Of a DNA stretch of 64,000 nt, positions 27,831 to 62,380 are shown piece after piece. Location: positions 1,040,586-1,104,585 of the forward strand of contig OZ241993.1 in the NCBI GenBank assembly GCA_965204575.1, given 5' to 3'. A program made the position numbers and the translations under genes. Source of the DNA: an uncultured candidatus Porisulfidus sp. Its GTDB lineage: Bacteria; Pseudomonadota; Gammaproteobacteria; Poriferisulfidales; Poriferisulfidaceae. The notes under the pieces are model-generated. The model made no database searches, was not told the origin of the DNA, and saw only the letters and a list, made by a program, of their open reading frames with translations. Within the stretch, counting starts at the first letter, position 1, and every line of letters begins with the position of its first letter.

Positions 27831-27871
27831 TCTTTATTTCCTCCTATAATAAGTAAAGGAGGATTTTATAG

Positions 27872-28126
27872 ATGCCTTTAAACATCAAAAATATTGCTAC
27901 TCATGCGTTAGCAAAGAAAATCGCAACCTTAACTGGGGAGTCTATGACTAAGGTTGTCACAGAGGCTCTCCAGGAGAAATTGGTGCAAGTGGAAAAGGCA
28001 AAAGGCCGCGTTGGACTGGCGGAGGAACTTGATCGCATTGCCTTGCACTGTGCCAGTCTACCAAGGCGCGATGACAGAAGCCCCGACGAGATCATTGGTT
28101 ACGACGACCACGGGCTACCCCAGTGA
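27872..28126 (+). CDS. vapB: VapB-family antitoxin
   Basis: 84 aa. MPLNIKNIATHALAKKIATLTGESMTKVVTEALQEKL. Confidence 0.75.
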   Translation: MPLNIKNIATHALAKKIATLTGESMTKVVTEALQEKLVQVEKAKGRVGLAEELDRIALHCASLPRRDDRSPDEIIGYDDHGLPQ

Positions 28127-28544
28127 TCGCCATTGATGCGTCTGCTCTCATCGCGATTCTGAGCGATGAACCGGAACGAAGTGGTTTCAACAAACTGATC
28201 GAGTCGGAAGAATTTGCGTACATTAGTGCTGCCAGCCTACTTGAGACCCGTATAGTTCTGTTTTCTCGCTTTGGTGACGATGGAGTCTTGGCTTTGGATT
28301 CGTTCCTTCTGAAAAGTGGCATCACTGTTGTCGAGGTCTCTCCCCGCATGGGCGCATTGCATTTGAGGCATACCAGCGTTTTGGCAAAGGGACAGGCCAT
28401 GGCGCATCTCTAAATTACGGAGACTGTTTTTCGTATGCTTTGGCAAAATATCTGGATGCTCCACTTCTCTTTAAGGGCGATGACTTTTCCAAAACAGACA
28501 TTTTCTCGACGTTGGTCGATACAGGAGAAACAGGTCAGCACTGA
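28123..28544 (+). pseudogene. vapC: VapC PIN-domain toxin interrupted by a frameshift
   Basis: The N-terminal PIN region (MIAIDASALIAIL...) reads to about 28385. The conserved C-terminal part (IAFEAYQRFGKGTGHGASLNYGDCFSYALAKYLDAPLLFKGDDFSKTDI) continues in the -1 frame, up to the stop at 28544. Confidence 0.7.
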
Positions 28545-28703
28545 GCAAGTGACTGAAGATCAAATGTCTGCATTGATCCTTGTCGCATGTGGATTGTAAA
28601 ACTGCAAAACTGATGTCCAAGACAAATCACTGGTGTTGTACCTCAGAGTTGAACCTGGGTCTTATAAAATATCCCGGTATCGGATTCATACAGGAACGGT
28701 AAC

Positions 28704-29579
28704 ATGGGAAATACCGAGGAATGCTATAAAGTTTGCCGTGAGAATATATCGGAGGCAGGACTATGGGTAGTGAAGTCAGAATATTGCGTGGTCCGTGCTT
28801 TGAGATCTCCACGGTGGTCAAAAACTTCTCAGCGTGACGAATCATCTAGGCCAGGTGTTTACATTCTTGCTGATGGAGCTAAAGAAAAGATTTACATTGG
28901 TCAAACCGATACTCTTCAGAAGAGAATACGTACTCATAAAAATAATAGATTCGATTGGTGGGAAGAAATGTTGTGGATTACCCCGGATGGAAGCTACCGG
29001 TTCGGGACAGACCGTAGACGCTACGTGGAATCCAAGCTGATAAGCCAAGCCCGGAAGCAAGAGATCGAATTGAAAAATGATCAGTTTCCAGAACCACCTC
29101 AGCTAGACCTAGATGAGCAAAAAGACCTAGATGAAAAGGTTCTAAATCCCATTCTCCAGATATTTATTCCTTTGATGATGGGCTTCAATTTTGTGTTGCC
29201 ATCGCCCCAGAGAGATACTGAACCAGGTTGTACTGAGTTTGAAATTATTCCGCAACAAGAGAGCATCAAGGCCTTTGCGAAGATAGTTGGCGGCAAATGG
29301 ATTGTGCAAAAAGGTTCTCAAGCCCGCAAAGATTGGATGGGAGGTGCGAGAACGAAAGAGCTCATTAAGGGGGCATACCACAATCTGTATCAGTCTTTAA
29401 AGAAACAGGATATTCTTCGCGAATACGAGGAATTCTGTGTTTTCACCGAAGACCATGAATTTGATAGTCCTAGTGCGGCCGCATCTGTCATCTACGGACG
29501 ACAGGCCGCGGGTCCTCGCAATTGGAATGTGAGAGGCGAAGACAAAACCTACCGGGAATGGGAAAAAGAGAACCTATAA
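28704..29579 (+). CDS. GIY-YIG nuclease-domain protein with a C-terminal DUF4357 domain
   Basis: GVYIL...KIYIGQT...R...E gives the GIY-YIG core. The C-terminal [22 protein letters not shown] resembles DUF4357. Confidence 0.6.
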
Positions 29580-29587
29580 ATCCTCCA

Positions 29588-31513
29588 GTGCCTGTCGTAA
29601 CCCTTCCTGACGGTTCCACCCGCGAGTTCAAGCAGCCGGTCACGGTGATGCAGATCGCCGAGGACATCGGTGCGGGCCTTGCCAAGGCGGCATTGGCCGG
29701 CCGGGTCAACGGGCGGTTGGTGGATGCCTGCGTCGAGGTGGACGAGGACGCCGAAGTTTCCATCATCACCAATCGCGACGAGGAAGGCATCGAGATCCTG
29801 CGCCATTCGCTGGCACACATGCTGGGGCAGGCGGTCAAGCAACTGTATCCAGACGCCCAGATGGCGGTCGGCCCGGTGATCAAGGACGGGTTCTACTACG
29901 ACATCGCCCACAAGGAATCCTTCACCGAGGAAGACCTTGAGAAGATCGAGGCCAAGGTGCAGGAGCTGATCGCACAGGACTATGACGTGCTGCGCGAAGT
30001 GGTGACCCGAGAGCGGGCCCGCGAAGAATTCGAGGGACGTGGCGAAACCTACAAGGTGCAGATCGTCGACGAGATCCCGGAAGGCGAGGAAATCGCGCTG
30101 TACCACCACCAGGAATACGTCGACATGTGTCGTGGCCCGCATGTCCCGAACACCCGCCACCTGCGGGCGTTCAAGTTGACCAAACTGGCGGGCGCCTACT
30201 GGCGGGGCGACTCCCGCAACGAGATGCTGCAGCGCATCTACGGCACCGTCTGGCCGGACGCCAAGCAGCTTCGGGCCTACCTCCACCGGCTGGAGGAAGC
30301 GCAGAAGCGCGACCACCGCAAGCTGGGGCGCGCGATGGACCTGTTCCATTTCCAGGAGGAAGCGCCGGGCATGGTGTTCTGGCACGCCAACGGCTGGATC
30401 CTGTATCGCCAGTTGGAAAGTTACATTCGCGAACGCCTGGACCAGACGGGCTACCAGGAGGTGCACACTCCGCAGATACTGGATCGCAGCCTTTGGGAGC
30501 GGTCCGGGCACTGGGACAAGTTCGGCGAGATGATCTTCACCACCGAGTCCGAGAACCGCGAGTACGCGGTCAAGCCGATGAACTGCCCGGGTCATGTCCA
30601 GTTGTTCAACCAGGGGCTCAAGAGTTACCGGGACCTGCCGTTGCGCATGGCCGAATTCGGCACCGTGCACCGCAACGAGCCGTCGGGCACCCTGCACGGG
30701 CTGATGCGGGCGCGCCGCTTCGTGCAGGACGACGCGCACATCTTCTGCACACCGGAACAGCTGCAGGACGAGATTGCCGAGTTGATCGAACTGACGCGTT
30801 CGACTTACCGGGACTTCGGATTCGAAGACATCATATTGGGCCTGTCGACCCGCCCGGAGCGGAGGATCGGCGAGGATGCCCTGTGGGACCGGGCCGAGAA
30901 GGCGTTGGACGAGGCGATGACCGCGACCGGCCTGGAATTCGCCGTGCATCCGGGCGAGGGCGCGTTCTACGGGCCGAAGATCGAGTTCACCTTGACCGAC
31001 TGCATCGGGCGCGAATGGCAGTGCGGCACGATCCAGCTGGATTTCTCCATGCCGGACCGCCTCGGTGCCCGGTACGTGGACGAGAACAGCGAGAAGGTGG
31101 TGCCGGTCATGATTCATCGTGCCATCTTCGGCTCGCTGGAACGGTTCATCGGCATCCTGATCGAACACTACGCCGGGGACCTGCCGCTGTGGCTGGCGCC
31201 CCGCCAGGCAGTGGTGCTGAACATCACCGATGCCCAGGCCGACTATGCCCGGGAGGCCATGGCACGGTTGCAGGCAGCCGGCGTGCGGGCGCAGAGCGAT
31301 CTTCGAAACGAGAAAATCTCCTTTAAAATACGCGAGCACACGCTCGCGCACGTCCCGTACCTGCTGGTAGTGGGCGATCGGGAACAGGAAAACCGGGCTG
31401 TCGCGGTGCGAGCGCGGGACGGCACGGACCTGGGGCCGGTGCCGCTGGATGAACTGGCGGAGCGGTTTGCTGTTACAATTCGCGCTCGCCGATCAAATCT
31501 GATGGAGGATTGA
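29588..31513 (+). CDS. thrS: Threonyl-tRNA synthetase
   Basis: 641 aa from a GTG. TGS domain ([26 protein letters not shown]), editing domain, class II core and anticodon-binding domain. Confidence 0.93.
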
Positions 31514-39911: not shown

Positions 39912-40012
39912 TCGCGCCGCCTGATGCGGCAGGTGTTGGACTACTACATTGCTCCGCAGACGATTCGGTCGCGGGGCATCATGCAGGCGCTGACGGGTTG
40001 ATTCCTGCGATC
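39912..40012. repeat. Direct repeat copy 2 (displaced recO 3' end)
   Basis: See the repeat at 39424-39526. Confidence 0.85.
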
Positions 40013-40052
40013 CTCGATATGGCACCTGAGCCTCAGCGGCTCAAAGGAGGGG

Positions 40053-40925
40053 TCAAGGCAAGCAGTCTTCGGGTTCAGGCGGTTGCCCGCCGTCCCTACG
40101 CAAGATGCGCAACGCCGCCTCGATATCAGCCTCGGATGCACATGTAGCGAAGAACGAAGCCATTTTCATCGCGGATACCTTTTCGGCGACTGCCATGACG
40201 ACGAACTGGTTGATGCTCGTGCCTTCCTCTTTGCTGATCTCCGTGACCGCCGACTTTAGGGAAGCCGGTAGTCTCAGGGGATAGGTGCTGGCTGGCTTCT
40301 TCATGGCACGGTCGGGCTGTCGGTCGCGAGGTTCGAGTGGTTGGGGAATGCGTTGATTGTCGCGGCAGTACTGCCACAGGTAGGCATCGACTTGTTGCCG
40401 AGTGAGTCCATGCTCCCGGCTCAGAAACGTGACCATCTCTTCCACAGTTGCGGAACACGCGGCGGCGCATTGCTTCATCCAGGTGTCAGGCTTCTCCGTG
40501 TCTTCAAGGCCGATGGCCGTTGCCAAGTGTCGGTTCGTGGCAGGTCCCATATAGGGAAGTTCCGTAAGCACAACCCTGCCGTGCTTGCGCATCCGTTGCT
40601 TGAAAGCCTCCCATCCTTCCGCATGAATCAACTTGCATCCCTTGAGGAAAGCATCCGCCTTCCGCTGATGGCGGATCGGCAGCGTCTGGGCATCTATTGA
40701 CTCCATGGCCACGATCCTGCCCAGGTCGAGGTTGTGGAATTTCTTGACGATGGTGTCGAAGTGCTTCTCGACGACTGAGTTCCGAAAACCCGAGACATAG
40801 ATGACCCAGAGGTACACCTCAAGAAATCCCTTCAGGTCGAGATCGTCGAAAACCCTCGGCTCCCACGGGCTGCCAACATGTGCCTGTGCGGTTTCCAGCA
40901 TCCGTGTTGCCTTGTTCTTATCCAT
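40053..40925 (-). CDS. Fusion protein: Tag-like (3-methyladenine DNA glycosylase I-like, HhH) N-terminal domain plus HicB-like RHH C-terminal domain
   Basis: FLEVYLWVIYVSGFRNSVVEKHFDTIVKKFHNLDLGRIVAM parallels E. coli Tag (FEMICLEGQQAGLSWITVLKKRENYRACFHQFDPVKVAAM). The C-terminus YPLRLPASLKSAVTEISKEEGTSINQFVVMAVAEKV matches the HicB-like antitoxin motif. Confidence 0.55.
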   Translation of the reverse strand: MDKNKATRMLETAQAHVGSPWEPRVFDDLDLKGFLEVYLWVIYVSGFRNSVVEKHFDTIVKKFHNLDLGRIVAMESIDAQTLPIRHQRKADAFLKGCKLIHAEGWEAFKQRMRKHGRVVLTELPYMGPATNRHLATAIGLEDTEKPDTWMKQCAAACSATVEEMVTFLSREHGLTRQQVDAYLWQYCRDNQRIPQPLEPRDRQPDRAMKKPASTYPLRLPASLKSAVTEISKEEGTSINQFVVMAVAEKVSAMKMASFFATCASEADIEAALRILRRDGGQPPEPEDCLP

Positions 40926-41025
40926 TTGTCATTGCCGTTTGCGGGCGGTCCCAACGTGAATTATAAAGAAAGGTTGATGATTTTATTGGCAATCTATAAG
41001 ATGGTTTAAAATAAAAGAGATTCGC

Positions 41026-41945
41026 ATGGCACACAGGCAACCCGGGAAATCGTATCGTCAGGGCATCGCTCTGGCCCACCTGTTCGACACGTTCCCGAAC
41101 GAGAAAGCGGCGCAGGAATGGTTCGAAAGCGTGGTATGGGCGAAGGGACGCTACTGCCCACGCTGTGGCTCTACGAGCACCCACGAGGCCAAGCATGCGA
41201 AATGCCCATACCGTTGCCGCGATTGCGGAAAGTACTTCAGCGTGAAGACGGGAACCGCCATGGCATCGTCCAAAGTTTCTCTTCGCAAGTGGGCCATCGC
41301 CATATACATTGACGCGACCAGCCCGAAAGGCGTGTCTTCGCTCCAGTTGCACCGAGATATCGGTGTGTCGCAGCCCACGGCCTGGTTCATGTTGCACCGC
41401 ATCCGCGAAGGATTCACGGACAAGCGCGCATCTATGGATGGCTTGGCCGAAATTGATGAGATGCACATCGGCGGCAAGCGTAAGAATATGCCCAAGAGTA
41501 AGCGAAAGGAACGGTCAGGGCGGAGTGCAACCGGCAGGACTGCGGTCGTTGGCGTGAAGGATCGCCAGACGAGGAAAGCTCGTGCAAAAGTGGTGGCGGA
41601 CCCGGGTTTGGACACTCTCCATGAGTTTCATTCGTGATCACGTCGCTGATGACGCAAAGGTCTGTACGGACGATGCCGTTCGACTCTGAACCCGTGAAAC
41701 ATGGCATGGGAGAGTACGTGCGGGGCATGGCCTACACGAACGGGGTCGAGTCGCTCGGGCTCATGCTTGAGCGGGGCGATATCGGTATTGATCATCAAAT
41801 GATTGCAAAGCATCTTCACTGGTACGTCAGCGGATTCGCCGGTCGTCACGGGGTGCGCGAGCGGAACACGCTGGAGCAACTGCGGGATGTTGCCGCTAGA
41901 ATGGCCGGCAAGAGGTTGCCGTATTGCGAACGGGTTCGTTTCTGA
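41026..41945 (+). pseudogene. IS1595-family transposase, inactivated by at least two frameshifts
   Basis: An N-terminal Zn-ribbon (CPRCGSTSTHEAKHAKCPYRCRDCGKYF) and DDE region read to EFHS* at 41637. The segment IRDHVADDAKVCTDDA lies in another frame. A third frame carries GMGEYVRGMAYTNGVESLG...HLHWYVSGFAGRH. Confidence 0.75.
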
Positions 41946-41956
41946 CAGGGGAGTGA

Positions 41957-42898
41957 TTGGAGAGCGTCATGGGAAACCCGATTTATGGAGGTGCAACGCC
42001 TGAGCAGGTGGCACTTGAGATGCTTCGGCCATCCAAGTTCATTGAACCGCTTTATGATCTCGTGTTTGGGGACGCCTTTGATTGGCTGGAATCGGCGGAG
42101 CATGAATCGATTCACGCGGTCGTGACCGACCCGCCTTACGGGTTGATCGAATACAAACCTGAACAACTCCAGAAGCGCCGAGATGGCAATGGCGGGGTAT
42201 GGCGTCTGCCGCCTTCGTTTGATGGAAGCAAACGTCAGCCAGTTCCGCGCTTTACGGTCTTGACTGACAGGGACAAAGATGAAATGAGGGCATTTTTTGC
42301 CCGTTTGGCTGAAAGTCTCTACCCGGTCCTCGTTCCAGGGGCCCATGTCTTCATTGCTACCAACCCCCTTCTAGCCCATTTGGTCTTCGAACCGTTCCTT
42401 GCTGCAGGATATGAGAAACGAGGAACGCTGATTCGTGAAGTGCATACGCTGCGCGGCGGTGACCGTCCCAAAAATGCCCATAAGGAATTCCCTGATGTCA
42501 CGGTCATGCCAAGATCATGCTTTGAGCCATGGGAAATTTTCCGGCGTCCGCTTCAAGGACGCGTTCAAGACAATCTGCGAAAGTGGGGAACCGGCGGTCT
42601 TCGGCGTCTCTCTGCGGAGCAACCGTTCAAGGATTTAGTCAAATCGTGTCCAGCGAAGAGGAAGGAGCGGGAAATTGCCCCCCATCCTTCATTGAAACCG
42701 CAAGCGTTTCTTCGGCCGTTGGTGAGGTCCAGCCTTCCTCTTGGTAAAGGTACCATACTCGATCCATTTGCAGGGTCAGGGTCCACCCTTGCAGCGGCGA
42801 TGGCTTGCGGCATAGAGAGTGTGGGCATTGAACGTGACCCGGAATACCATCAAATGGCATTGGACGCCATTCCGGCGTTGGCGCGTTTGGAAGTCTGA
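41957..42898 (+). CDS. Beta-class DNA methyltransferase (N6-adenine or N4-cytosine)
   Basis: Motif IV TDPPYGL comes before motif I DPFAGSGSTLAAA, in the ParB-MTase/beta-class order. Confidence 0.85.
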   Translation: MESVMGNPIYGGATPEQVALEMLRPSKFIEPLYDLVFGDAFDWLESAEHESIHAVVTDPPYGLIEYKPEQLQKRRDGNGGVWRLPPSFDGSKRQPVPRFTVLTDRDKDEMRAFFARLAESLYPVLVPGAHVFIATNPLLAHLVFEPFLAAGYEKRGTLIREVHTLRGGDRPKNAHKEFPDVTVMPRSCFEPWEIFRRPLQGRVQDNLRKWGTGGLRRLSAEQPFKDLVKSCPAKRKEREIAPHPSLKPQAFLRPLVRSSLPLGKGTILDPFAGSGSTLAAAMACGIESVGIERDPEYHQMALDAIPALARLEV

Positions 42899-42900
42899 CC

Positions 42901-43500
42901 ATGTTCGACAATGATGTTCAATTGCCTCCCGGATTGGAGATTTCCGCGATCCAACGCTCTATCGAGTTTGTCGAAAAACAATTAAGTGAACGTGACTTCG
43001 TGGACCTCTATCTTGAACAGGCCAATATATTCAGCGCGTTAGTGGGCATGTTCGCAACCAAGGCGCTGGATCAAGTCAGCAACTATGAAAAGCATCGGCA
43101 TAGCCATACGGCTCAACAACGTTTTCCTGATTTGTGCCGCCGGGGAGCATCCTTCCCACTTAAACCCGAGGATTCACTGGAGAGCAAGGCCAGCAAACGG
43201 CCTTGGGCGATACAATCCCACTACGATCACGCCGGATGGTACATCATCTGGAGATATCTGGTCGACCTGACCAAGACCATCAAGGATGATGCGGCTTTGG
43301 TGATTTGGCGCGTTGATGTCGTCTATTTGACCAAAACCGATTGGAAGTACGAGGGTTCGTCGGCAGATATGAGTGGCGGAGGAAGAACGCATACTTTTGG
43401 TGTGCGAAAACCTGCCACGCGATTGCGGGGCTGTGCCGTCTACAAGCGCCCCGACATCGTCATTCGTGATGGCAAGCCTGTGCCCGTCAACCTTCCTTGA
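42901..43500 (+). CDS. Hypothetical protein, candidate restriction endonuclease partner of the methyltransferase
   Basis: 199 aa, immediately downstream (3-nt gap) of the MTase in a low-GC insertion. No family recognised. Confidence 0.4.
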   Translation: MFDNDVQLPPGLEISAIQRSIEFVEKQLSERDFVDLYLEQANIFSALVGMFATKALDQVSNYEKHRHSHTAQQRFPDLCRRGASFPLKPEDSLESKASKRPWAIQSHYDHAGWYIIWRYLVDLTKTIKDDAALVIWRVDVVYLTKTDWKYEGSSADMSGGGRTHTFGVRKPATRLRGCAVYKRPDIVIRDGKPVPVNLP

Positions 43501-43698
43501 TTCCCTATTCTTTAAGAACAGTCGTAAGCAGGCGCCAACTCCAGGCAGAGGAAAAGCAGCGAAAGCGAAGCTCTTGCTTCCGTATATCCCCTAGGAACCA
43601 AGTTCAAATATGCCTTGCAACTCTTGCGGAGTGTATGCAGGTATTCCCGGAAAGCCTTTAGTGGTAGAGTGTCCATAGCAAAAACTACTTTGTGTACC

Positions 43699-44421
43699 GT
43701 GAAGAATGTACGACTAGGCGTGAATATTGACCACATAGCGACCCTGCGCCAGCAGCGCCACACGGACTACCCGGACCTGGGCGAGGCGATCCGCCGAGTG
43801 GAAGCGGCCGGGGCGGACGGCATCACCCTGCACCTGCGCGAGGACCGGCGGCACATCCAGCTGGAGGACGTGGAACAGGCGCGCCGGGAAGTGAGTGGAA
43901 CCCTGAACCTGGAGATGGCCGCAACCGAGGAGATGCTGGACATTGCGGAACGCATCCGTCCGGATTACTGCTGCCTGGTGCCTGAGCGGCGCGAGGAACT
44001 CACCACTGAAGGCGGTCTGGACGTCGTGGCGGGCGAAGATCGGATCCGGGAGGCGTGCACCCGGCTGAAAGCGGCGGGCATTCAGGTTTCGCTGTTTGTC
44101 GAGCCGACGCACGAAGCGATGGATGCCGCGGTCGAACTGGGTGCGTCGATCGTGGAGTTGCACACCGGTCCCTACGCCAACGCGACGGAGCCGGAAGCCC
44201 ACGAGGCGGAGCTGGAACGGCTGGTTTCCACCACGCAGTATGCGCGGGAACGGCTGACGGTCAACGCCGGACACGGCTTGCATCGCGACAACGTGGGCCC
44301 GGTGGCTTCGATCCCGGGAATGAACGAACTTAATATCGGTCACGCCATCGTCTGCCGGGCGGTGATGGTGGGATTGGAAGGAGCCGTGCGCGAAGTGCGC
44401 GAAGCCATGGAGGCGTCATGA
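43699..44421 (+). CDS. pdxJ: Pyridoxine 5'-phosphate synthase
   Basis: [15 protein letters not shown]...[16 protein letters not shown]...NLEMA...VNAGHGL...ELNIGHAI is the PdxJ signature. GTG start assumed at 43699. Confidence 0.85.
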
Positions 44422-48422: not shown

Positions 48423-48612
48423 GAGAGAGGCCCGGCTGAAAGCATGGCGCGTATGTTAACAGGAAGGTCGCGAGAGGCGGGGGCGGGCGGGCCGGCGACC
48501 GATGATTTTTCACCGTTGCGGCCGGCGCGTCCGCCGCGCTTGGAGTGGCGCACACCCGCGCAGGGACAGCGGCACGGCATGTTGTATACTTAGGCGAAAC
48601 CACAATGGTAGC

Positions 48613-48631
48613 CCCCCCCCCCCCCCCCCCC
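48613..48631. repeat. Poly-C homopolymer tract (19 C) in the dapD/secB-like divergent intergenic region
   Basis: gccccccccccccccccccccctag, read directly from the sequence. Confidence 0.9.
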
Positions 48632-48862
48632 TAGAAAGAGTCTTCCCCCGCGCCTCCGCGGCGGGCATCGGGAACGTCCGCGGCACCGCCCCGCGCAGGG
48701 CTGGCCGCGCGAGACGGCGGTCGGGCACGTGGCGCGGCCATCGCCAGGCAGGGCGCGTTCTTTCATGCCGGCCTCAAGCGCCTGCCCAGACCGGGGTTTG
48801 ATAAAGAAAAAACTATTTGTTAAAATCCTGCCCATCATCGGGAAGTGGTATTTGCATCTTTA

Positions 48863-49285
48863 ATGGAACCTAACATCGTTATGCATGGCCGATACATACG
48901 GGATCTATCCTTCGAGAATTTCGGTGCGCCGGCCTTGCCGGGGGACGCCGCCCCCGTCTTCGACATCGACGTCGGGGTGGAGAGCAGGCGGGCCCGGGAC
49001 ATGCACGAGGTGATGCTGTTCGTCCAGGTCACCGCCCGGCGCGAGGAGCAGATCGCGTTCCTGATCGAGTTGAACTACGCCGGCCTGTTCCAGGTCCAGG
49101 ACCTGGACGAGCGGGAGACGCGGCGTTTCCTCCACACCGAGGCGCCGCGCATGCTGTTTCCGTTCGTCGACCGGATCTGCGCGGACGCGACCCGGGACGG
49201 CGGCCTGCCGCCGCTGGCCCTGACGACCCCGGACTTCGCCCTGCTGTACCGGGAACGCGAGGAGAAACCCGCCGCCATCGACTGA
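48863..49285 (+). CDS. secB: SecB-like export chaperone
   Basis: GRYIRDLSFEN..., HEVMLFVQVTARREEQIAFLIELNYAGLF and MLFPFVDRICADATRDGGLPPLALTTPDFALLY align with E. coli SecB. Confidence 0.7.
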   Translation: MEPNIVMHGRYIRDLSFENFGAPALPGDAAPVFDIDVGVESRRARDMHEVMLFVQVTARREEQIAFLIELNYAGLFQVQDLDERETRRFLHTEAPRMLFPFVDRICADATRDGGLPPLALTTPDFALLYREREEKPAAID

Positions 49286-49314
49286 CTACTGAGCCTGTGT
49301 GGAAGCTCAGCCAC

Positions 49315-50727
49315 ATGCAAGAATCCCCCCCCCCCCCCTCAAACCATAACCGGCCTGAACTAGGGCCCGGCGCGGCCCGCGCGCCGGTCCTGCGCCGTCG
49401 CCGTCGCGACGGGTGGCTGCCGCCGGAGAAACGCCGTGCGCGTTCCAGGACGCGGGTGCGCCGGCAGGTGGCGGTCAACGTGCTGGGGGTGTGCTCCATG
49501 CTTTCGCACTCGGTGGCGCCGTACCTGGCGGCGGTCGCCGCGAAAAGCACCACCGCGGTCGGCGCGGTCGGCACGTTCGCCGCCCTGGCGCCCGACGAGG
49601 CGGCGGCGCAAAACCCGGGCCCGGCGGGAGCCAAGGGCGACAAGGGCGACAAGGGCCAGGTGGGCATTCCTGGACGACCGGGCGACAAGGGCGAGGAGAT
49701 GGGCGCACCCCCCGGTGAGAAGGGCGCAACAGGCGTAAAGGGCTCGCCCGGCGGAGAAGGTCAGAAGGGCGATCAGGGACGGCCGGGCAATCGAGGCAGC
49801 CGAGGCATACCGGGCGAAGAGGGGGCGAAGGGCGTGCTGGGATTCAAAGGCCTTCCGGGAGGCGCTGGCGATCAGGGCTCGAAGGGCCCGAGGGGCGATC
49901 CAGGTCCGCAGGGCTCGGCGGGTGTCAAGGGCGATACGGGCCAGAAGGGCGACCCGAAGGCGATCGGTGCCAAGGGCGATACAGGCGAGGCGGGCGCACC
50001 GGGTGCACCGGGCACGCCGGGCGCGCAGGGTTCGCAGGGCGCACAGGGCGCACAGGGCGCGCCGGGCGCACCGGGCGCATCGGGCACGCCGGGCGCCAAA
50101 GGGGAGGCAGGCGCGGGCGGCTTCGATTTTTCCGAGCAGGGGAAGGCGCGGGTCCGGGAGAAGGCCCGGGCCCTGCGGGAATCGGAGAACCCGGCCGACC
50201 AGCGGATCGGTCGGCTGCTGGAAGGCATCCTGGACGAGCTGGCGCCGGCCGCGGGGGGACAGCTGCAGTCGCTGCAGTCCGCCGGCGGGCGGGCGCTGCA
50301 GACCGAGGAGCCGGCGAGTGACAGCCTGACCCTGCTGCGGTATGCCTCCCGCTCCGACACGCCCCGGGCGGAGCAGGCCGGGGCGCTGATGGGCAGCATC
50401 TTCCTGAACCAGCGGGACATCGCCGAGAATCGCCAGAACATCGAGAAGAACCGGCAGGACATCGCCGGGCTGCGGGACGAGGACTACAGGCTGCGCAACC
50501 GCTCGCGCGAGGGGACCGCCCTGGCCATCGCGCTCGGCGGCATCCACTTCCCGCTGGACAAGGACCGGTCCGTCTCGCTGCGCTTCGGGCGCTTCGAGGG
50601 CGAGGAGGCGCTGGCGCTGGGCGCGTCCTTCCGCCTGCGGGAGAACTGGCAGATCGATTTTGGCATGGGCCGGGGGCTGAGCTACCGGCAGAACGGCTAT
50701 TCCGCCGGGCTGAGCTACAGCCGGTAG
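49315..50727 (+). CDS. Collagen-like trimeric autotransporter adhesin, paralog 1: Gly-X-Y repeat stalk, coiled coil, YadA-like C-terminal anchor
   Basis: About 56 Gly-X-Y triplets ([21 protein letters not shown]...), with Lys and Pro frequent in the Y position. The C-terminus [69 protein letters not shown] matches the YadA anchor pattern. The start is uncertain: ATG 49315 reads through the poly-C tract, and ATG 49498 is a conservative internal alternative. Confidence 0.65.
49325..49338. repeat. Poly-C homopolymer tract (14 C) at the 5' end of the first collagen-like adhesin gene
   Basis: aatcccccccccccccctc. It is in frame, encoding SPPPPS, if translation starts at ATG 49315. Confidence 0.9.
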
Positions 50728-50764
50728 GCGGCCCCTGAGACTGAACCACGAGGAGGTGAGGAAG

Positions 50765-52189
50765 ATGAGCAGCGAGGAGAAGAGGCGGCCGGATTCGGAA
50801 GACGGGCTTCCGCCCGAGTCGAGGGAGGCCGCGGGGCGCGCGCCGGTCCTGCGCCGTCGCCGTCGCGACGGGTGGCTGCCGCCGGAGAAGCGCCGTGCGC
50901 GCTCCGGGACGCGGGTGCGCCGGCAGGTGGCGGTCAACGTGCTGGGGGTGTGCTCCATGCTTTCGCACTCGGTGGCGCCGTACCTGACGGCGGTCGCCGC
51001 GAAAAGCACGACCGCGGTCGGCGCGGTCGGCACGTTCGCCGCCCTGGCGCCCGACAAGGCGGCGGCGCAGGACCCGGGCCCGCCGGGCCAGAAGGGCGAA
51101 AAGGGCGACGCGGGCGTACAGGGCGCGCCGGGTTCGCAGGGCGCGCCGGGTGGCGAAAAGGGCGGCCGGGGCGACATGGGCCAGAAGGGCGAGCCGGGTG
51201 ATCCGGGCGCCACGGGCGAGAAGGGTTCGCAGGGCTCACCCGGCAGGCGTGGCATCACCGGCAACAAGGGCGAGGAGGGTGATCCGGGCGCGACAGGTAG
51301 TCAGGGTCAGAAGGGCGTTTTCGGCGAGCCGGGTGATCCGGGTCCGCAGGGCGCGGCAGGTGATCCGGGTCAGAAGGGCGCGATGGGTCAGAAGGGCGAG
51401 GCCGGCGGCCCGCCGGGCCAGAAGGGCCAAAAGGGGACAGCCGGCACAGCCGGCCCGTCGGGCGCCGCCGGTGCGCCGGGCGCAGCCGGTGCGCCGGGCG
51501 CCGCCGGTGCGCCGGGCGCTGCCGGTGCATCGGGCGCCGCCGGTGCGCCGGGCGAGAAAGGCGATGCGGGCGCGGGCGGCCTTGACTTCTCCGAGGAGGG
51601 GAAGGCGCGGATCCGGACCACGGCCCAGATCCTGCAGAAATCGGAGAATCCCGCCGACCGGCAGATCGGGGAGCTGCTCGAGGAGGTCCTGGACGAACTG
51701 GCGCCGGCCGCCGAGGGACAGCTGCAGTCGCTGCAGTCGGCCGGCGGGCAGGCGCTGCAGGCCGGGGAGGAGCCGACGGGCGACAGCCTGGCCCTGCTGC
51801 GCTACGCCGCCCGCTCCGACGTCACCGGGGCGGAGCAGGCCGGGGCGCTGGTGGGCAGCGTGCTCCTGAACCAGCGGGACATCGCCGAGAATCGCCAGAA
51901 CATCGAGAAGAACCGGCAGGACATCGCCGGGCTGCGGCACCAGTACCGCGACCTGCGCGACCGCTCGCGCGAGGGGACCGCCCTGGCCATCGCGCTCGGC
52001 GGCCTGCGCGTCCCGGTGGCCCGGGACTGGGCCGTGTCGCTGCGCTTCGGGCGCTTCGAGGGCGAGGAGGCGGTCGCGCTGGGCGCGGCCTTCCGCCTGA
52101 AGGAGGGCTGGCAGGTCGATTTCGCGCTGGGCCAGGGCCTGAGTTACTCGCAGAACGGCTATGCCGGTGGCGTGAGCTACAGCTGGTAG
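50765..52189 (+). CDS. Collagen-like trimeric autotransporter adhesin, paralog 2
   Basis: A strong SD (AGGAGG) sits 8 nt upstream of ATG 50765. There is an Arg-rich N-terminal extension, a conserved hydrophobic leader, about 50 Gly-X-Y triplets, and a YadA-like anchor ending ...GVSYSW. Confidence 0.8.
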
Positions 52190-52199
52190 CCCGGTCGCG

Positions 52200-52832
52200 A
52201 TGGCGGTGCGGCGGCGGGCGGCGGAGGCGGCGATGCGGCACTTGCTGACGTACGAGGGGGCACGGGCGGACGGCTGCTGGCGGGAGGTCGCCCCGGACAT
52301 CCTGACCTTCCCGTTCTGGACCCCGGACTTCTGCGAGGAACTGGTGGCGGTGTCCGAGCTGCTCGACGAGTTCCGCCCGTACGCCCCCGACGTGGAGGGC
52401 AACGCCGCGCCGGGGCAGGAACTGCGGATCAACCGGATCAGCCCGCGCTTCGCGGAACAGTTCGAGACGCATTTCCAGGAGCGCGCGGCGCCGATCCTCC
52501 GCGTGCACTGGTGGCCGCTGAACCTGGGCAAGACGCGCATGCCCTTCGTGCTGCGCTACTCCGCCGACACGCAGGCCTCCCTCGACCCGCACCACGACGC
52601 CGCCATGGTGAGCCTGGCGATGCCGCTCAACGCCGGCTACGAGGGCGGGCACCTGACCTTCCCGCGCCAGCACTGGGACAGCCGCGAGGTCGAGGTCGGG
52701 CACGTGATCGCCTTTCCGAGCCGGGTCACCCACGTGCACTGGGTCACGCCGGTGACCTCCGGGACCCGCTACGCGATGACCTGCTGGCTGTCCGACCCGA
52801 ACGCCCAGCCCGACGATGCCATTCTCGCGTGA
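52200..52832 (+). CDS. 2OG-Fe(II) oxygenase homologous to the catalytic domain of procollagen lysyl hydroxylase (PLOD/LH)
   Basis: LDPHHDAAMVSLAMPLNAGYEGGHLTF...HVIAFPSRVTHVHWVTPVTSGTRYAMTCWLSDP parallels the human PLOD C-terminus ([29 protein letters not shown]...GTRYIMVSFVDP). HxD...H iron triad. Confidence 0.8.
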   Translation: MAVRRRAAEAAMRHLLTYEGARADGCWREVAPDILTFPFWTPDFCEELVAVSELLDEFRPYAPDVEGNAAPGQELRINRISPRFAEQFETHFQERAAPILRVHWWPLNLGKTRMPFVLRYSADTQASLDPHHDAAMVSLAMPLNAGYEGGHLTFPRQHWDSREVEVGHVIAFPSRVTHVHWVTPVTSGTRYAMTCWLSDPNAQPDDAILA

Positions 52833-54267
52833 GGAGCCGGCGGACGTCCCCGCCGTCCTTGTCGTCCACCTCGCGCGCCACCGGGAACGCCGCCGCCGCC
52901 TGTCCGCCCTGCTGAAGCGGCACGGGTTCGCGCACGTGAACTGGCTCGACGCGGTGGACGGCCGGGAGCTGGACCCCGCGCCGCCGTGGCGGGGCGCCGG
53001 CCTGCCGCCGGCCAACGCCTGGCCGAACTGGGCGGATCCGTACGCCCGCCGCGCCCTGACCCTGGGCGAGGTTGCCTGTACCCTGTCGCACGTGGCCGCC
53101 TGGCGGCGCATCGCGGACGAGGGCTACCCCGCCATCGTGCTGGAGGACGATGCGCTCCCGGTGGAGCCGCTGATCCGGGACCTGCCGGACCTGCTGGCGG
53201 ACCTCGATCACTTCGACTTCGACCTGTGCTACCTCGCCCAGCGCAACGCGCCGGGGCCGAAGGCGCTGATGGGCCGGCACGTGCACCTGGTCGACTACCA
53301 CCCGGTGTGGACGCTGGCCTACCTGCTGGCGCCGTCCGGCGCGGAGAAGCTGCTCGCCAGCCCCTGGCAGAGCCGGCTGGTCCCGGCCGACGAACTCCTG
53401 CCCGCCGCGTTCGGCCGGAACCGGGACCCGGAGATCAACCGGGCCTACGTCGGCGACGGCGGCATGGTGCTGTCCAGCAACCAGCGCTTCTTCACCCCGG
53501 CCGAGGGTTCGGAGAGCAGCGAGACCGAGAAGAGCCGGCCGGTGCGGGAGCCGGAATGCGGCCTGACGGGCCTGACCGTGGCGACCGAACGCCGCCCGGA
53601 ACTGCAGCGCCTGCAGGAGTCCGGCCTGCGCTACGGCCTGGAGATCGAGGCCCTGGGGCTGGGCCAGCCCTGGCGCGGCGGCGAGATGTCCGAGGGCACC
53701 GGCGGGGGACAGAAGATCAACCTGCTGCGCCCCGCCCTGCAGCGGCTGCCGCCGGAGCGGCCGGTGCTGTTCGTGGACGGCTACGACACCCTGATCTCCG
53801 GGCATGTCTCGGACATCCTGGGCGCCTGGCGGCAGACCTGCGACGGCCCGCTGTTCGCCGCCGAGGTCTACTGCTGGCCGGATCGCGACCGGGCCGACGA
53901 CTACCCTTCCGCGGCGACCCCCTACCGCTTCCTGAACTCCGGCGCCTTCATCGGCAAGGCCGGGGACCTGCTGCGCATCCTGGACGGGAAGATCGACGAC
54001 CGCGCGGACGACCAGCGCTACTACACCGAGCGCTTCCTGTCCGGCCGGCACGGCATGACGCTGGACACCGAGTGCCGGGTCTTCCAGTGCCTCAACGGCG
54101 CCCTGGACGACGTGCGGGCGGACGAGGGGCGGGGCATGCTGTTCAACCGGCGCACCGAGAACTGGCCGGCGGTGATCCACGCGAACGGCCCAAGCAAGGA
54201 GTGGCTGGAGAAGGACGGCCGGCCCGTGGGCGGCCGCTGGCGCCGCTACTACGGGGAGATGATTTGA
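52816..54267 (+). CDS. Bifunctional glycosyltransferase: N-terminal GT25 (collagen galactosyltransferase/LgtB-like) domain fused to a PLOD/LH3-type glycosyltransferase domain
   Basis: GT25 motifs VLVVHLARHRERR, LTLGEVACTLSHVAAWRRI and IVLEDD. The C-terminal half (LTVATE..LGLGQPWRGG..GGGQK..LFVDGYDTLISG..CWPD..YRFLNSGAFIG..YYTERFL..VFQCLNGALDDV..IHANGPSK) is colinear with the N-terminal GT domain of human lysyl hydroxylases. Confidence 0.8.
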   Translation: MPFSREEPADVPAVLVVHLARHRERRRRLSALLKRHGFAHVNWLDAVDGRELDPAPPWRGAGLPPANAWPNWADPYARRALTLGEVACTLSHVAAWRRIADEGYPAIVLEDDALPVEPLIRDLPDLLADLDHFDFDLCYLAQRNAPGPKALMGRHVHLVDYHPVWTLAYLLAPSGAEKLLASPWQSRLVPADELLPAAFGRNRDPEINRAYVGDGGMVLSSNQRFFTPAEGSESSETEKSRPVREPECGLTGLTVATERRPELQRLQESGLRYGLEIEALGLGQPWRGGEMSEGTGGGQKINLLRPALQRLPPERPVLFVDGYDTLISGHVSDILGAWRQTCDGPLFAAEVYCWPDRDRADDYPSAATPYRFLNSGAFIGKAGDLLRILDGKIDDRADDQRYYTERFLSGRHGMTLDTECRVFQCLNGALDDVRADEGRGMLFNRRTENWPAVIHANGPSKEWLEKDGRPVGGRWRRYYGEMI

Positions 54268-54286: not shown

Positions 54287-54709
54287 ATGAGCAAAAGAAT
54301 TTCAGCACTGGTCATCCTTGTCGCGCTGTCCCTGCCGCTGACCGCGCAGGCGCACGACAACCTCTTCAATCCGGGGCACCAGCACGGGCTTGAGGTCGAT
54401 GCCATTTCCGAGCGCAACAGAGGGTCTTTCTGCATCGTGTTCAAGGAATCTTCGGTCGAGTGTCCAGAGAAGTACAACAGCCTCAGAGGGTGCGCGTACA
54501 AGTGCCTGTACCGGGTATGGGCGGACTGGTCGGACGACCGGGGGAGTGGCCGCGAGGTCGATCATAACTGGAGCCGCTGCCATATTGCAGGCAGTCACAA
54601 CCCGGCGCTTGCGGCGGCGGAAGTCCGCATCACCAAGCCGCACTGGGCGACCGGGGCCTGGGGCGCGTATGTCCGCGCCGGGGATGACGGAGAAAAGATC
54701 GTGAGGTGA
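54287..54709 (+). CDS. Small secreted Cys-containing protein (signal peptide)
   Basis: MSKRISALVILVALSLPLTAQA signal peptide; 7 Cys residues; low-GC segment. Confidence 0.5.
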   Translation: MSKRISALVILVALSLPLTAQAHDNLFNPGHQHGLEVDAISERNRGSFCIVFKESSVECPEKYNSLRGCAYKCLYRVWADWSDDRGSGREVDHNWSRCHIAGSHNPALAAAEVRITKPHWATGAWGAYVRAGDDGEKIVR

Positions 54710-54737: not shown

Positions 54738-55031
54738 ATGAAGAAAACCATACCCGCGCTGATCCTGATGCTGGCCTTGTCCCCGGCATACGGATTGGCA
54801 CCTAAACCCCGACCCCTTGTGGACATCTGCAAGGATCACTTCGAAAGAAGTTCCGCCTACCAGAGTTGCACCGATATTCAATATGCGGATGTCGGCGGCG
54901 GCTACTGCAAGGTCATGGCGTGGTGCCGCTCGGTAAATGAAACGCTATCTTCCACGTCCAAGAGGACAAAGCCGTCGGAGGCCGACGAACTGTACAACTG
55001 TCAGGGCCAGTTGACGATCAAGGTTTGCTGA
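54738..55031 (+). CDS. Small secreted Cys-rich protein (signal peptide)
   Basis: MKKTIPALILMLALSPAYGLA signal peptide, an SD (AGGAGA) upstream, and 8 Cys residues. Confidence 0.5.
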   Translation: MKKTIPALILMLALSPAYGLAPKPRPLVDICKDHFERSSAYQSCTDIQYADVGGGYCKVMAWCRSVNETLSSTSKRTKPSEADELYNCQGQLTIKVC

Positions 55032-55083: not shown

Positions 55084-56055
55084 ATGCCTTCCGGGGAACC
55101 CGTGCTGGTCACCGGCGGGGCTGGCTACGTGGGCAGCCATGTGGCGCTGGCGCTTCGCGAGGCGGGCTACCCTGCCGTGGTCCTCGACGACCTCTCCACG
55201 GGGCGGCGCGAGGCGGTGCCCGACGGGGTTGGATTCATCGAGGGCGATGTCGGCGACCGGGTCGCCGTCGGCCGCATCCTCGGGGAATCCCGCATCGCCG
55301 CCGTCGTGCATTGCGCCGCCAGCGTCAGCGTCCCCGAATCCGTGCGCGACCCGCTACGCTACTACCGCAACAACAACAGTGCGGGCACGGGCTTGGTCCG
55401 CGCCTGCGTCGAGGCCGGGGTGGGACGCTTCGTCTTCTCGTCGACCGCCTCGGTGTACGGCGTGCCGCGCACGGTGCCGATCCCCGAGGATGCCCTGACC
55501 CTCCCCATCAATCCCTACGGATGCTCCAAGCTGGCCTCCGAATGGATGCTGCGCGATGTCGCGGCGGCCCACGACTTCCGCTGCATCACGCTGCGCTGCT
55601 TCAATGCGGCCGGGGCCGACCCCCGGGGCCGGGCCGGGTCGGATGGCCCGGATTCCGGACACCTGATCGAGGTCGCCTGTGCGGCCCTCGCCGGCCGCCG
55701 CGACCGCGTCACCGTGTACGGCACGGACTACGGGACGGCGGACGGCACCTGCGTGCGGGATTACGTCCACGTGTCGGATCTCGCCGCAGCCCATGTCGCC
55801 GCGCTGCGCGAGCTCGAGGACGGGGGGGAAGGCGGCGTGTTCAACTGCGGCTACGGACGCGGCTTCTCGGTCCGCGAGGTGTTGGAGACGGTGCAGGCCG
55901 AGGCGCGCGTGCGCCTCGACATCCGCGACGGGCCGCGTCGCGCCGGCGACCCCCCGGTGCTGATCGCCGAGGCGTCGAGAATTCGACGGACGCTGCGCTG
56001 GTCGCCGCGCTTCGACGACCTCGCCGTGATCGTCCGCACCGCACTCGCCCGCTGA
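55084..56055 (+). CDS. galE: UDP-glucose 4-epimerase
   Basis: Rossmann motif VLVTGGAGYVGSH, catalytic YGCSK, and an SDR extended-family C-terminus. Confidence 0.85.
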   Translation: MPSGEPVLVTGGAGYVGSHVALALREAGYPAVVLDDLSTGRREAVPDGVGFIEGDVGDRVAVGRILGESRIAAVVHCAASVSVPESVRDPLRYYRNNNSAGTGLVRACVEAGVGRFVFSSTASVYGVPRTVPIPEDALTLPINPYGCSKLASEWMLRDVAAAHDFRCITLRCFNAAGADPRGRAGSDGPDSGHLIEVACAALAGRRDRVTVYGTDYGTADGTCVRDYVHVSDLAAAHVAALRELEDGGEGGVFNCGYGRGFSVREVLETVQAEARVRLDIRDGPRRAGDPPVLIAEASRIRRTLRWSPRFDDLAVIVRTALAR

Positions 56056-56722: not shown

Positions 56723-57349
56723 ATGGAAGGACCCGACATCGTCTGCGTTCACCAGACCAACTTCCTGGAAAAGGAGGAAGCGCTCCGCCTGCGCGACCAG
56801 ATGGCCCAGGCCATCTCCCTGCACGGAAGCCAGGGGACCGTGGGCAGCAGAGACGGGAATTTCAGCGTCGACAAAACCTACCGGAACTCCAAGATCTACT
56901 TCCTCGACCCGTGGAACCCGCCCGACTGCATGGACGGCGACCTGGTGCGGGCGGTGTTCTACAAGATCGCCGGGTTTGCGGAAATCGCCTGCCGCACCAC
57001 CCTCAAGCACCTTGACATCCGCCTGAACGATCTCGCCGGCACCCCGCTTCAACTCGGCCGCTACCGGGTGGGCGAGCGGTACGAGGAGCATTCCGACAAC
57101 AGCGAGAGTTCGCATAAGGGGCGGCTGCTCTCGATCTCCGTGACCGTCTCGAGCGCCCGCGAGGGCGGCCACCTCTTGCTCAGGCGGCTTCCTCCGAGCA
57201 GTCCGGCGGTCGAGGAAATCCGGCAGGACCGGGCCATCGTCGCCTTTCCGAGCTGGGAACGGCACAGCGTGAGCGCCGTCGAGCAAGGGGAACGCTATTC
57301 GATCGTGACGTGGTTCGAAGGCACGCGCGGAAGCCCGGGGCAGCGGTGA
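56723..57349 (+). CDS. Prolyl 4-hydroxylase-like 2OG-Fe(II) oxygenase (P4Hc/PKHD type)
   Basis: RVGERYEEHSDNSE (HxD) ... KGRLLSISVTVSSAREGGHLLL ... AFPSWERHSVSAVEQGERYSIVTWF fit the P4Hc fold and match the layout of YbiX/PiuC-type hydroxylases. Confidence 0.7.
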   Translation: MEGPDIVCVHQTNFLEKEEALRLRDQMAQAISLHGSQGTVGSRDGNFSVDKTYRNSKIYFLDPWNPPDCMDGDLVRAVFYKIAGFAEIACRTTLKHLDIRLNDLAGTPLQLGRYRVGERYEEHSDNSESSHKGRLLSISVTVSSAREGGHLLLRRLPPSSPAVEEIRQDRAIVAFPSWERHSVSAVEQGERYSIVTWFEGTRGSPGQR

Positions 57350-61783: not shown

Positions 61784-62380
61784 ATGAAGAGCCTTCCGAA
61801 ACGCATCATGGAGCATGCGCAATCCCTGCCGGAAGCGGCGCCGCTGTGCGCGGGCGCCCTGCTGCACCTGGGCAACCGGGCCGCGGTCGACCAGTCGCTG
61901 TCGCGCCTGGCGAAGTCCGGGAAACTCTTGCGGGTCTGTCAGGGAGTCTATGTGCGACCCATTGAAACGCGCTTCGGCCTGCGCAACCCCTCTACCAGGC
62001 AGGCTGTCCGGGCGCTTTCGGAATTGTGGGGAGAAACTGTGGTCCCATGTGGCGGGGGAGCCGCCAGTGCCCTCGGCTTGACGACCCAGAATCCCGTCCA
62101 GTCGGTTTACCTGACTTCGGGGGCTGACCGCGAGCTACGGTTCGGGGCCCTGTCCGTGCTGTGGCGCCACGCTCCGCGCTGGCAACTGGTCGCGCCGAAC
62201 CGGCTGGCCGGCGCCGTCGTTCGGGCGCTGTCCTGGCTGCATCGCGAAGAGGCGGAAGAGGCGCTCAGGCAAGTCCTGCCCAATCTTTCCGAAGAGGACA
62301 AGGCCGAATTGCTCGAGGTTCGGGCGGTTATTCCGACTTGGATGGCGCAGGCCGTCAGCGAGGTGGTGGCCGGTGGCTGA
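61784..62380 (+). CDS. AbiEi-like (DUF6088-type) putative type IV antitoxin/transcriptional regulator, orphan
   Basis: The N-terminus PLCAGALLHLGNRAAVDQSLSRLAKSGKLLRVCQGVYVRP fits the AbiEi N-terminal winged-helix pattern. No AbiEii nucleotidyltransferase gene is adjacent. Confidence 0.55.
   Translation: MKSLPKRIMEHAQSLPEAAPLCAGALLHLGNRAAVDQSLSRLAKSGKLLRVCQGVYVRPIETRFGLRNPSTRQAVRALSELWGETVVPCGGGAASALGLTTQNPVQSVYLTSGADRELRFGALSVLWRHAPRWQLVAPNRLAGAVVRALSWLHREEAEEALRQVLPNLSEEDKAELLEVRAVIPTWMAQAVSEVVAGG

Follow-up and report, generated by a model that had tools for sequence, protein, structure and literature searches.

Collagen-like trimeric autotransporters encoded beside predicted collagen-lysine-modifying enzymes and a SecB chaperone in a candidatus Porisulfidus genome

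A 64-kb stretch of DNA from an uncultured candidatus Porisulfidus sp. (contig OZ241993.1, positions 1,040,586 to 1,104,585), here called the window, contains two adjacent genes for proteins with long runs of collagen-like Gly-X-Y triplets. What are these proteins, and which of the surrounding genes belong with them? An earlier reading of the letters, made without database searches (the sequence-only reading), had proposed that they are a tandem pair of paralogs in which collagen-like passengers of about 50-56 triplets are carried on YadA-type anchors of trimeric autotransporter adhesins (TAAs). Our analysis shows that this interpretation was right but understated, since it overlooked the genes for predicted collagen-lysine modification enzymes and for the export chaperone SecB that are linked to the pair.

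Two predicted trimeric autotransporters with a collagen-like rod

The two maximal open reading frames (ORFs) are on the + strand, at 49297-50727 (476 aa) and 50756-52189 (477 aa), and both begin with GTG. The likely start of the first gene (TAA1) is the ATG at 49315, as the sequence-only reading had it, and that of the second (TAA2) is the ATG at 50765, which is preceded by a GAGGAGG Shine-Dalgarno sequence. With these starts, the two genes are organized as follows:

49315-50727, + strand: collagen-like TAA1 (leader 49315-49608; rod 49618-50127; linker and coiled-coil stalk 50128-50505, with heptads at 50416-50472; helix and four-strand anchor 50506-50724)
50765-52189, + strand: collagen-like TAA2 (leader 50765-51067; rod 51077-51586; stalk heptads 51878-51934; anchor 51968-52186; C-terminal Trp)

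Domain matches in the window were judged against the curated gathering cut-offs of Pfam. Both proteins, which are 64% identical to each other, passed the cut-offs for Collagen (E 2.5e-22 for TAA1 and 1.1e-23 for TAA2) and for YadA_anchor (PF03895; 33.1 and 30.8 bits, respectively, with a cut-off of 22.7). A family alignment was made from 14 TAA proteins of nine genomes, comprising the two from the window and 12 further proteins from eight other genomes. Leader, collagen, stalk and anchor lie in one continuous frame in both TAA1 and TAA2, and because the same frame is kept in the 12 further proteins, chance can be excluded as its source. The family profile aligned with the YadA anchor structure 2LME over all of its 91 residues (E 1e-3) and matched the NadA stalk 6TIK (E 2e-5), while the anchors aligned with those of conventional, Hep_Hag-containing TAAs. 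Together with the heptad repeats, these matches supported the proposed combination of collagen-like passengers and YadA-type anchors, and both paralogs proved to be genuine + strand ORFs with triplet counts in the range proposed. The sequence evidence thus supports a description of TAA1 and TAA2 as predicted "headless" TAAs with a collagen-like rod.

TAA1 contains 54 Gly-X-Y triplets and TAA2 contains 56, in three blocks that span residues 108-277 of each ORF. The rod starts 2-3 residues past the predicted cleavage site, with no head domain, and with ≈170 residues at ≈0.29 nm per residue it would be roughly 50 nm long. Interruptions of the triplet pattern had been described for TAA1 only. Its two breaks (MGAPP and KAI) were found as described, but TAA2 also has two, at residues 135 and 220, where the register shifts by one residue. 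The heptads beside the anchor have Ile at position a and Asn at position d and are visible in the DNA as a 21-nt tandem repeat, of which there are five copies in locus L006. The anchor itself consists of the motif REGTAIAIALGG..P followed by four β-strands, a pattern that is conserved in the family alignment. Of the 14 proteins, 12 end in Trp, TAA2 among them. We also observed that the TAA1 orthologue on L001, a near-identical contig from the species of the window, ends in Arg like TAA1 (50722-50727); outer-membrane β-barrel proteins typically end in an aromatic residue.

According to the 14-protein alignment, the leader is ≈100 aa long and comprises the motifs P.LR...R...WW.P and R(K/R)Q, a hydrophobic (L/M)G.CSMLS segment, an Ala/Gly-rich hydrophobic stretch and an A-x-A|Q site. 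The sequence-only reading had noted a nearly identical 5' region of about 130 nt in the two genes and suggested that the Arg-rich extension encoded there might act as an extended signal peptide region (ESPR). The near-identity is real, but it extends over ≈280 nt (49371-49650 versus 50830-51109, 94% identical, compared with 84% in the 3' half). The Arg-rich motif is conserved as protein across orthologues while the DNA differs, showing that the extension is translated, as part of the conserved leader. However, six leaders gave no match to Pfam ESPR (PF13018) even at E ≤ 10, so the leader corresponds to an extended signal peptide by analogy of position only and does not belong to the ESPR family. 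Two other explanations for this region were considered and rejected. Initiation at a later ATG (49498 in TAA1, 50957 in TAA2; "MLSHS..."), which would yield a signal peptide of normal length, is contradicted by the L003 orthologues, where this Met is Val or Leu, and by the protein-level conservation of the upstream motif. A regulatory RNA in the 94%-identical region was rejected because there were no Rfam matches and because what the orthologues conserve there is the protein sequence.

Word-indexed searches that used the TAA C-terminus as the query recovered one relative and then nine. Searched exhaustively with HMMER, 1.84 billion representative proteins yielded 156 matches, of which only 19 had E ≤ 1e-10, indicating that the TAA family is small and rare. 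Most of its members were recovered not by TAA searches but through the neighboring glycosyltransferase (GT) gene.

Lysine is confined to the Y position

The 14 TAAs contain 979 triplets in total, with 242 Lys residues in the Y position, where Lys is the commonest residue, and none in the X position. As judged from the sequences, this places Lys in the X-Lys-Gly context that is used by lysyl hydroxylases.

A predicted lysyl hydroxylase and a predicted two-domain glycosyltransferase follow the TAA genes

The two genes downstream of TAA2 encode predicted homologues of the enzymes that modify Lys in animal collagen:

52200-52832, + strand: stand-alone PLOD-type lysyl hydroxylase (LH), a 2-oxoglutarate (2OG)-Fe(II) oxygenase, assigned by PDB matches, Pfam 2OG-FeII_Oxy_3 and conserved residues
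52816-54267, + strand: bifunctional GT25 + GT_PLOD fusion (GT25 domain 52855-53394, COLGALT1-like; GT_PLOD domain 53563-54240, LH3/R699-like)

In the PDB, the LH protein had strong matches only to human LH3/PLOD3, in its LH domain (E 6e-14), and to mimivirus L230 (E 1e-12); PKHD, the next family after the LH domains, reached only E 0.01. Ten orthologues share residues H131-x-D133, H180 and R190, which align with the HxD...H...R motif of LH3.

The GT gene overlaps the LH gene by 17 nt. Its product matched Pfam Glyco_transf_25 (PF01755) with 64 bits, compared with a cut-off of 24, and GT_PLOD (PF25342) with 195 bits. The GT25 domain aligned with the catalytic GT2 domain of human COLGALT1 (residues ≈313-504, E 2e-23), and the GT_PLOD domain aligned with the GT domain of LH3 (E 2e-40), including the VDGYD, WRGG, CWP and HANGP motifs, and with mimivirus R699 (E 8e-34). 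In 13 GT homologues, a DxD motif (D112) and a DxxD motif (D321, D324) are invariant, and E110 is nearly so. An AlphaFold2 model of the fusion protein had a predicted local distance difference test (pLDDT) score of 88.9. When this model was compared with the PDB by Foldseek, the top 23 neighbors were all the LH3 GT domain, R699 or COLGALT1, with root-mean-square deviations (rmsd) of 2.0-2.8 Å. The TM-score to the isolated human domain 6WFV was 0.87, and COLGALT1 was matched with a Foldseek E of 6e-16 and an rmsd of 2.3 Å. Hydropathy analysis found no hydrophobic N-terminus or signal peptide on either LH or the GT fusion, and both enzymes are consequently predicted to be cytoplasmic.

SecB and GalE genes flank the TAA and enzyme genes

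The genes from secB through galE lie on one strand and either overlap or are separated by gaps of at most 52 nt. The following features delimit the cluster:

48798-48826, + strand: sigma-70-like promoter site in AT-rich DNA just 5' of secB (TTGATA-17-TAAAAT, extended -10; consensus match only)
48845-49285, + strand: SecB export chaperone (Pfam SecB E 1e-34; probable true start ATG 48863)
55084-56055, + strand: UDP-glucose 4-epimerase GalE, a supplier of UDP-galactose (NCBIfam TIGR01179, 392 bits, cut-off 262)

The promoter site has 10 of 12 consensus matches, with 0.4 such sites expected in the region. The first terminator-like site downstream of it on the + strand, likewise a consensus match only, is at 56416, past galE.

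There is just one secB within the window. Its product scored below every NCBIfam SecB equivalog cut-off (131 versus 143 bits and 91 versus 103 bits). Since the Pfam SecB match is strong while the equivalog scores fall short, the cluster SecB may be a divergent, dedicated paralogue.

The cluster recurs with different flanking genes

Comparison loci were taken around the GT fusion from named genomes and metagenomes. The fusion protein (≈480 aa) was represented by ≈60 clusters among 5.8 billion proteins. The core, consisting of SecB, one or more collagen-like TAAs, LH and GT, recurs in eight other genomes, and the same cluster is present on L001. The core-bearing loci were L002, L003 (identical to L009), L004 (identical to L012, from Ca. 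Poriferihabitaceae), L005, L006, L007, L008, L010 and L011; the L011 contig stops short of the SecB side. In seven of the eight other genomes, namely those in which that side could be read, secB lies beside or within the collagen-TAA cluster. Its placement varies: it is upstream in most loci, between two TAA genes in L003 and after GT in L010, and in L002, L006 and L007 there is overlap between its maximal ORF and that of a TAA gene. The flanking genes are different at every locus. The fact that the core stays together although the flanks differ and the position of secB varies suggests that the cluster, including secB, behaves as a unit. GalE is found in the cluster in L001, L002 and L005, with a more distant match in L006, and thus in three of the eight other genomes. 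One partial contig of Rhodospirillales (L013) carries the GT fusion and a SecB homologue; TAA and LH genes were not seen on it.

According to the record titles, the core-bearing loci come from metagenome-assembled genomes (MAGs) of Arenicellales or Gammaproteobacteria, with one from Alphaproteobacteria (L011); most are Arenicellales and relatives with sponge-associated names. Ca. Poriferihabitaceae is a family of Arenicellales whose genus names refer to life in sponges. The names of these related MAGs suggest that the organism of the window is sponge-associated as well.

Locus L007 (Gammaproteobacteria MAG OZ241844.1) has two additional features. A few kb downstream of the cluster is a giant collagen-like ORF (15035-21421) of more than 2128 aa and ≈700 Gly-X-Y triplets, which extends past the end of the locus and has eight Lys in X and 27 in Y. 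The locus also contains a second copy of GT, with a truncated LH, on the opposite strand (371-2226).

Related enzymes adjoin collagen-like fibers in phages and Marinimicrobia

More distant GT homologues, at ≈30% identity, are triple fusions of 604-617 aa that comprise GT25, GT_PLOD and LH. One of these is encoded after an 883-aa protein with collagen and Peptidase_S74 domains in a Neomarinimicrobiota MAG (L016); that protein has 34 Lys in Y and none in X. Two phage contigs with tape-measure and tail genes also encode such enzymes: L031 a GT25 + GT_PLOD fusion (P0061), with a separate gene for a 2OG oxygenase before it, and L034 a triple fusion (P0093). In both, the enzymes adjoin very large collagen-like ORFs, with 28 Lys in Y and none in X in L031 and 37 in Y and none in X in L034, and L031 has a shorter epimerase-family gene at the same position as GalE.

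The PHROG family phrog_61 spans all three domains (GT25, GT_PLOD and LH), and homologues are encoded by the T4-like cyanophages S-CAM9, S-PRM1 and S-8S53/55/56 and by Roseobacter phage CRP-6, where they are annotated only as hypothetical proteins or 2OG-Fe(II) oxygenases. In S-CAM9 (L035, NC_031922.1 27398-36254), the enzyme is encoded just downstream of an annotated 1830-aa tail fiber with 59 triplets, 22 Lys in Y and none in X. The enzyme module thus accompanies fibers with Lys at Y in three unrelated architectures, and nothing argues more strongly for the collagen-like proteins as its substrates. The arrangements in marine phages, cultured T4-like cyanophages among them, also suggest a so far unrecognized hydroxylysine glycosylation of phage tail fibers.

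A model for modification, export and display

Taken together, the results are best explained by a model in which the collagen-TAA chains are lysine-hydroxylated and glycosylated in the cytoplasm, held by SecB, exported and displayed on the cell surface, and we consider this sequence of events probable, although with no more than moderate confidence. The data that carry it are the domain identities, the conserved catalytic residues, the gene linkage and the position bias of Lys; from these we infer the enzyme substrates, the identity of the sugars, the cytoplasmic timing, the roles of SecB and the leader, trimer assembly and the mimicry of, or adhesion to, a host matrix.

In this model, secB, TAA1, TAA2, LH, GT, the two small genes that follow GT and galE would be transcribed as one unit. 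The pre-proteins would bear the conserved ≈100-aa leader, a possible docking element for SecB or for the enzymes, and SecB would keep the chains unfolded and untrimerized in the cytoplasm. Collagen-modifying enzymes act only on chains that are not triple-helical (PMC8968730), which gives an anti-folding chaperone such as SecB a logical role. The PLOD-type LH would convert Lys in the Y position (G-X-K-G) to hydroxylysine (Hyl), the GT25 domain would add galactose (Gal) from UDP-Gal supplied by GalE, and the GT_PLOD domain would add glucose (Glc), probably resulting in Glc-Gal-Hyl, as on animal collagen. The modified chain would then be passed from SecB to Sec. After cleavage of the leader, three C-terminal four-strand segments would build a 12-strand barrel, through which the passenger would emerge C-terminus first, with the Asn-at-d coiled coil setting the register and the collagen helix zipping from C to N. 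Animal collagens fold by such a C-to-N zipper (PMC5120351), and the emergence of TAA passengers C-terminus first would allow the coiled coil both to set the register and to nucleate the zipper. The resulting collagen-bearing surface may serve in matrix mimicry or adhesion to a host, probably a sponge.

A broader version of this model is tentative, and possible rather than probable: that sponge-associated gammaproteobacteria have a complete prokaryotic Lys → Hyl → Gal-Hyl → Glc-Gal-Hyl pathway, active in the cytoplasm with a dedicated SecB and leader, producing a coat of ≈50-nm glycosylated collagen fibers of host type that mimics or binds the collagen-rich sponge matrix, and that the module has been exchanged with marine phages, which would employ it on their collagen-like tail fibers.

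Several points weigh against the model. As a Sec signal the leader would be unusual, and the place at which it is cleaved is a prediction. The model also assumes that SecYEG can accept a chain that is heavily glycosylated, the analogy being with glycosylated autotransporters and with HMW1. An AlphaFold2 monomer model of the last 115 aa, based on an 11-sequence alignment, had low confidence (pLDDT 56). The C-terminal residue of TAA1 is Arg (...SYSR) rather than an aromatic residue, as it is in the second L004 protein (...ITFR). SecB may simply be the sole housekeeping copy of the genome. In the TAAs, 52% of the Y-position lysines precede G-D/E, and KGD/KGE pairing stabilizes triple helices, so the confinement of Lys to Y has a second possible cause, which is structural. 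Finally, sugar specificities are not readable from sequence, and mimivirus L230 attaches glucose directly to Hyl (PMC8968730, PMC9546862).

One alternative is that the proteins are real collagen-like adhesins that are modified differently from animal collagen, by hydroxylation only, by Glc placed directly on Hyl or by other hexoses, with SecB as a general chaperone that happens to be co-transcribed. Homology at 28-36% identity does not reveal which donors and acceptors a GT-A enzyme uses, GalE is found beyond L001 only in L002, L005 and, as a distant match, L006, and the cluster SecB retains the general fold signature seen in its Pfam match. However, COLGALT1-like and LH3-GT-like domains are present in every cluster with their metal-binding motifs invariant, a conservation that fits two successive sugar transfers; GalE lies inside the operon in the window; and SecB stays with the cluster even though the flanks differ everywhere. 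We regard this alternative as rather unlikely. A second alternative is that LH and GT act on some other substrate, such as lipopolysaccharide (LPS) or collagen-like proteins like the giant ORF of L007, leaving the TAAs unmodified. Lys at Y would then reflect KGD/KGE electrostatic stabilization of a hydroxyproline-free helix, in keeping with the frequency of G-D/E after Y-position Lys. Public annotation of the GT homologues as "glycosyltransferase family 25 protein" or as GR25 family, LPS biosynthesis, points in this direction, as does the presence of a further, very large collagen-like ORF near the cluster in L007. That ORF, however, has Lys in X as well as in Y, the top sequence and structure matches of the enzymes are collagen-lysine enzymes rather than LPS transferases, the enzymes adjoin TAAs at every locus examined, and the same pairing of enzyme and fiber occurs with unrelated fiber architectures in phages. 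A different substrate therefore seems improbable to us.

That the TAA genes are phage-structural (tail-fiber-like), or an artifact of host contamination or misassembly, is very improbable indeed. Distant relatives of the enzyme module are borne by phages beside tail fibers, and spurious collagen-like ORFs can occur in high-GC DNA. However, the proteins have YadA-type anchors and a TAA stalk, the frame from leader to anchor is continuous and conserved in 14 proteins, and the same operon is found in several chromosome-scale MAG assemblies of 2.1-4.7 Mb. The neighbors of the cluster are housekeeping genes, with dapE and dapD upstream and glnD downstream, and no phage genes were seen in the cluster.

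Relation to known systems

The closest known adhesins are the VtaA TAAs of Haemophilus (Glaesserella) parasuis, which likewise combine a YadA-type anchor with collagen triple-helix repeats in the passenger, and in which the collagen repeats of VtaA2 contribute to collagen binding (PMC6755704). The VtaAs carry head and neck repeats of the YadA type and have their collagen repeats in a central position, whereas TAA1 and TAA2 are headless. The VtaA2 paper mentions no linked LH, GT, GalE or SecB genes (PMC6755704). Collagen repeats in TAAs are thus already known, but the linked modification and chaperone operon appears to be undescribed.

On the enzyme side, animal LH3/PLOD3 and COLGALT1/GLT25D1 (PDB 6FXK, 8ZGC and 9EVJ) have homologous LH, GT25 and GT_PLOD domains with conserved metal and 2OG ligands, and the X-Lys-Gly motif of the animal pathway is also present in the collagen-like TAAs of the cluster. 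Unlike in the animal enzymes, LH is stand-alone, GT25 is N-terminal to GT_PLOD, and there is no accessory domain or non-catalytic GT1. The cluster enzymes are, moreover, predicted to be cytoplasmic, whereas the animal enzymes reside in the lumen of the endoplasmic reticulum. The phage phrog_61 enzymes, such as S-CAM9 gp218, resemble the cluster in combining GT25, GT_PLOD and LH beside collagen-like fibers with Lys at Y, but they are only 28-33% identical, have all three domains fused and have a virion fiber as the presumptive substrate. In Aah/AIDA-I, TibC/TibA and HMW1C/HMW1, a dedicated cytoplasmic glycosyltransferase is encoded beside the adhesin, which it modifies before Sec export; these systems differ in placing heptose on Ser/Thr or hexose on Asn and in having no hydroxylase step, collagen or linked SecB.

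Outside animals, in the literature searched, lysine hydroxylation and glycosylation were found to be characterized only for mimivirus collagen (PMC8968730, PMC9546862). Mimivirus L230, a lysyl hydroxylase and glucosyltransferase, and R699, a galactosylhydroxylysyl glucosyltransferase, are homologues of non-animal origin whose substrates are collagen-like proteins encoded alongside them (PMC9546862, PMC12279948), but they belong to a virus of a eukaryotic host, have other domain fusions and act without an autotransporter substrate or a chaperone. For bacteria, a computational prediction by Iyer et al. (2010) has collagen-like proteins hydroxylated by 2OG dioxygenases from the same operons, which also encode sulfotransferases (PMC2938197). 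Those operons combine a β-hydroxylase or phytanoyl-CoA hydroxylase with a sulfotransferase, and have no PLOD-type LH, GT25/GT_PLOD, TAA or SecB. Two papers mention in passing collagen-modifying enzymes in "certain bacteria", citing a review. In the literature searched, we found no description of a bacterial operon in which a PLOD-type LH, GT25/GT_PLOD, GalE and SecB are attached to TAAs.

If the broader version of the model is correct, this would be the first bacterial system for Hyl glycosylation and a ready-made toolkit for producing glycosylated collagen in bacteria. Glycosylated recombinant collagen cannot yet be made in bacterial hosts (PMC9546862), in which enzymes of bacterial origin may express well. 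The model would also raise the questions of how a triple-helix former is kept competent for export, whether Hyl-glycosylated chains pass SecYEG and where the animal PLOD and COLGALT enzymes originated, and it points to a "eukaryote-like" trait of the cell surface that would be new for sponge-associated bacteria.

Other features of the cluster and the window

The remaining features in and around the cluster are the following:

48612-48631, strand not assigned: C20 homopolymer upstream of secB, a candidate phase-variation tract, not proven to be part of the system
49325-49338, + strand: C14 tract in the 5' coding end of TAA1, encoding PPPP
54287-54709, + strand: small secreted protein of 140 aa with a signal peptide, outside the conserved core
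54738-55031, + strand: small secreted protein of 97 aa with a signal peptide, outside the conserved core
56723-57349, + strand: second 2OG-Fe(II) oxygenase (PKHD/PiuC-like), accessory, assigned by Pfam; PDB matches weak

The two small secreted proteins, encoded between GT and galE, had no match in Pfam, NCBIfam or PHROG and were found only in the species of the window, including contig L001. Relatives of the second oxygenase are encoded near the cluster in L002, L004, L005, L008, L013 and L016. It was examined as a possible collagen prolyl 4-hydroxylase, but the PDB comparison gave only weak PKHD/PiuC-like matches; that it might hydroxylate the frequent Pro in the Y position is a guess.

The C20 and C14 tracts are the only runs of 10 or more C in the 64 kb, where 0.6 matches would be expected. 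The TAA1 orthologue of L001 has C13 and a compensating substitution, and L005 has no tract at the TAA start. The two tracts are candidate sites for slipped-strand phase variation of the adhesin operon, or spots prone to assembly errors.

The G+C content of the window is 0.50-0.57 at 16001-30000 and 40001-44000, compared with ≈0.65 elsewhere and 0.73-0.74 at 50-54 kb, and the regions of low G+C are possibly acquired islands. A DUF6088/AbiEi antitoxin-like gene is located at 61784-62380.

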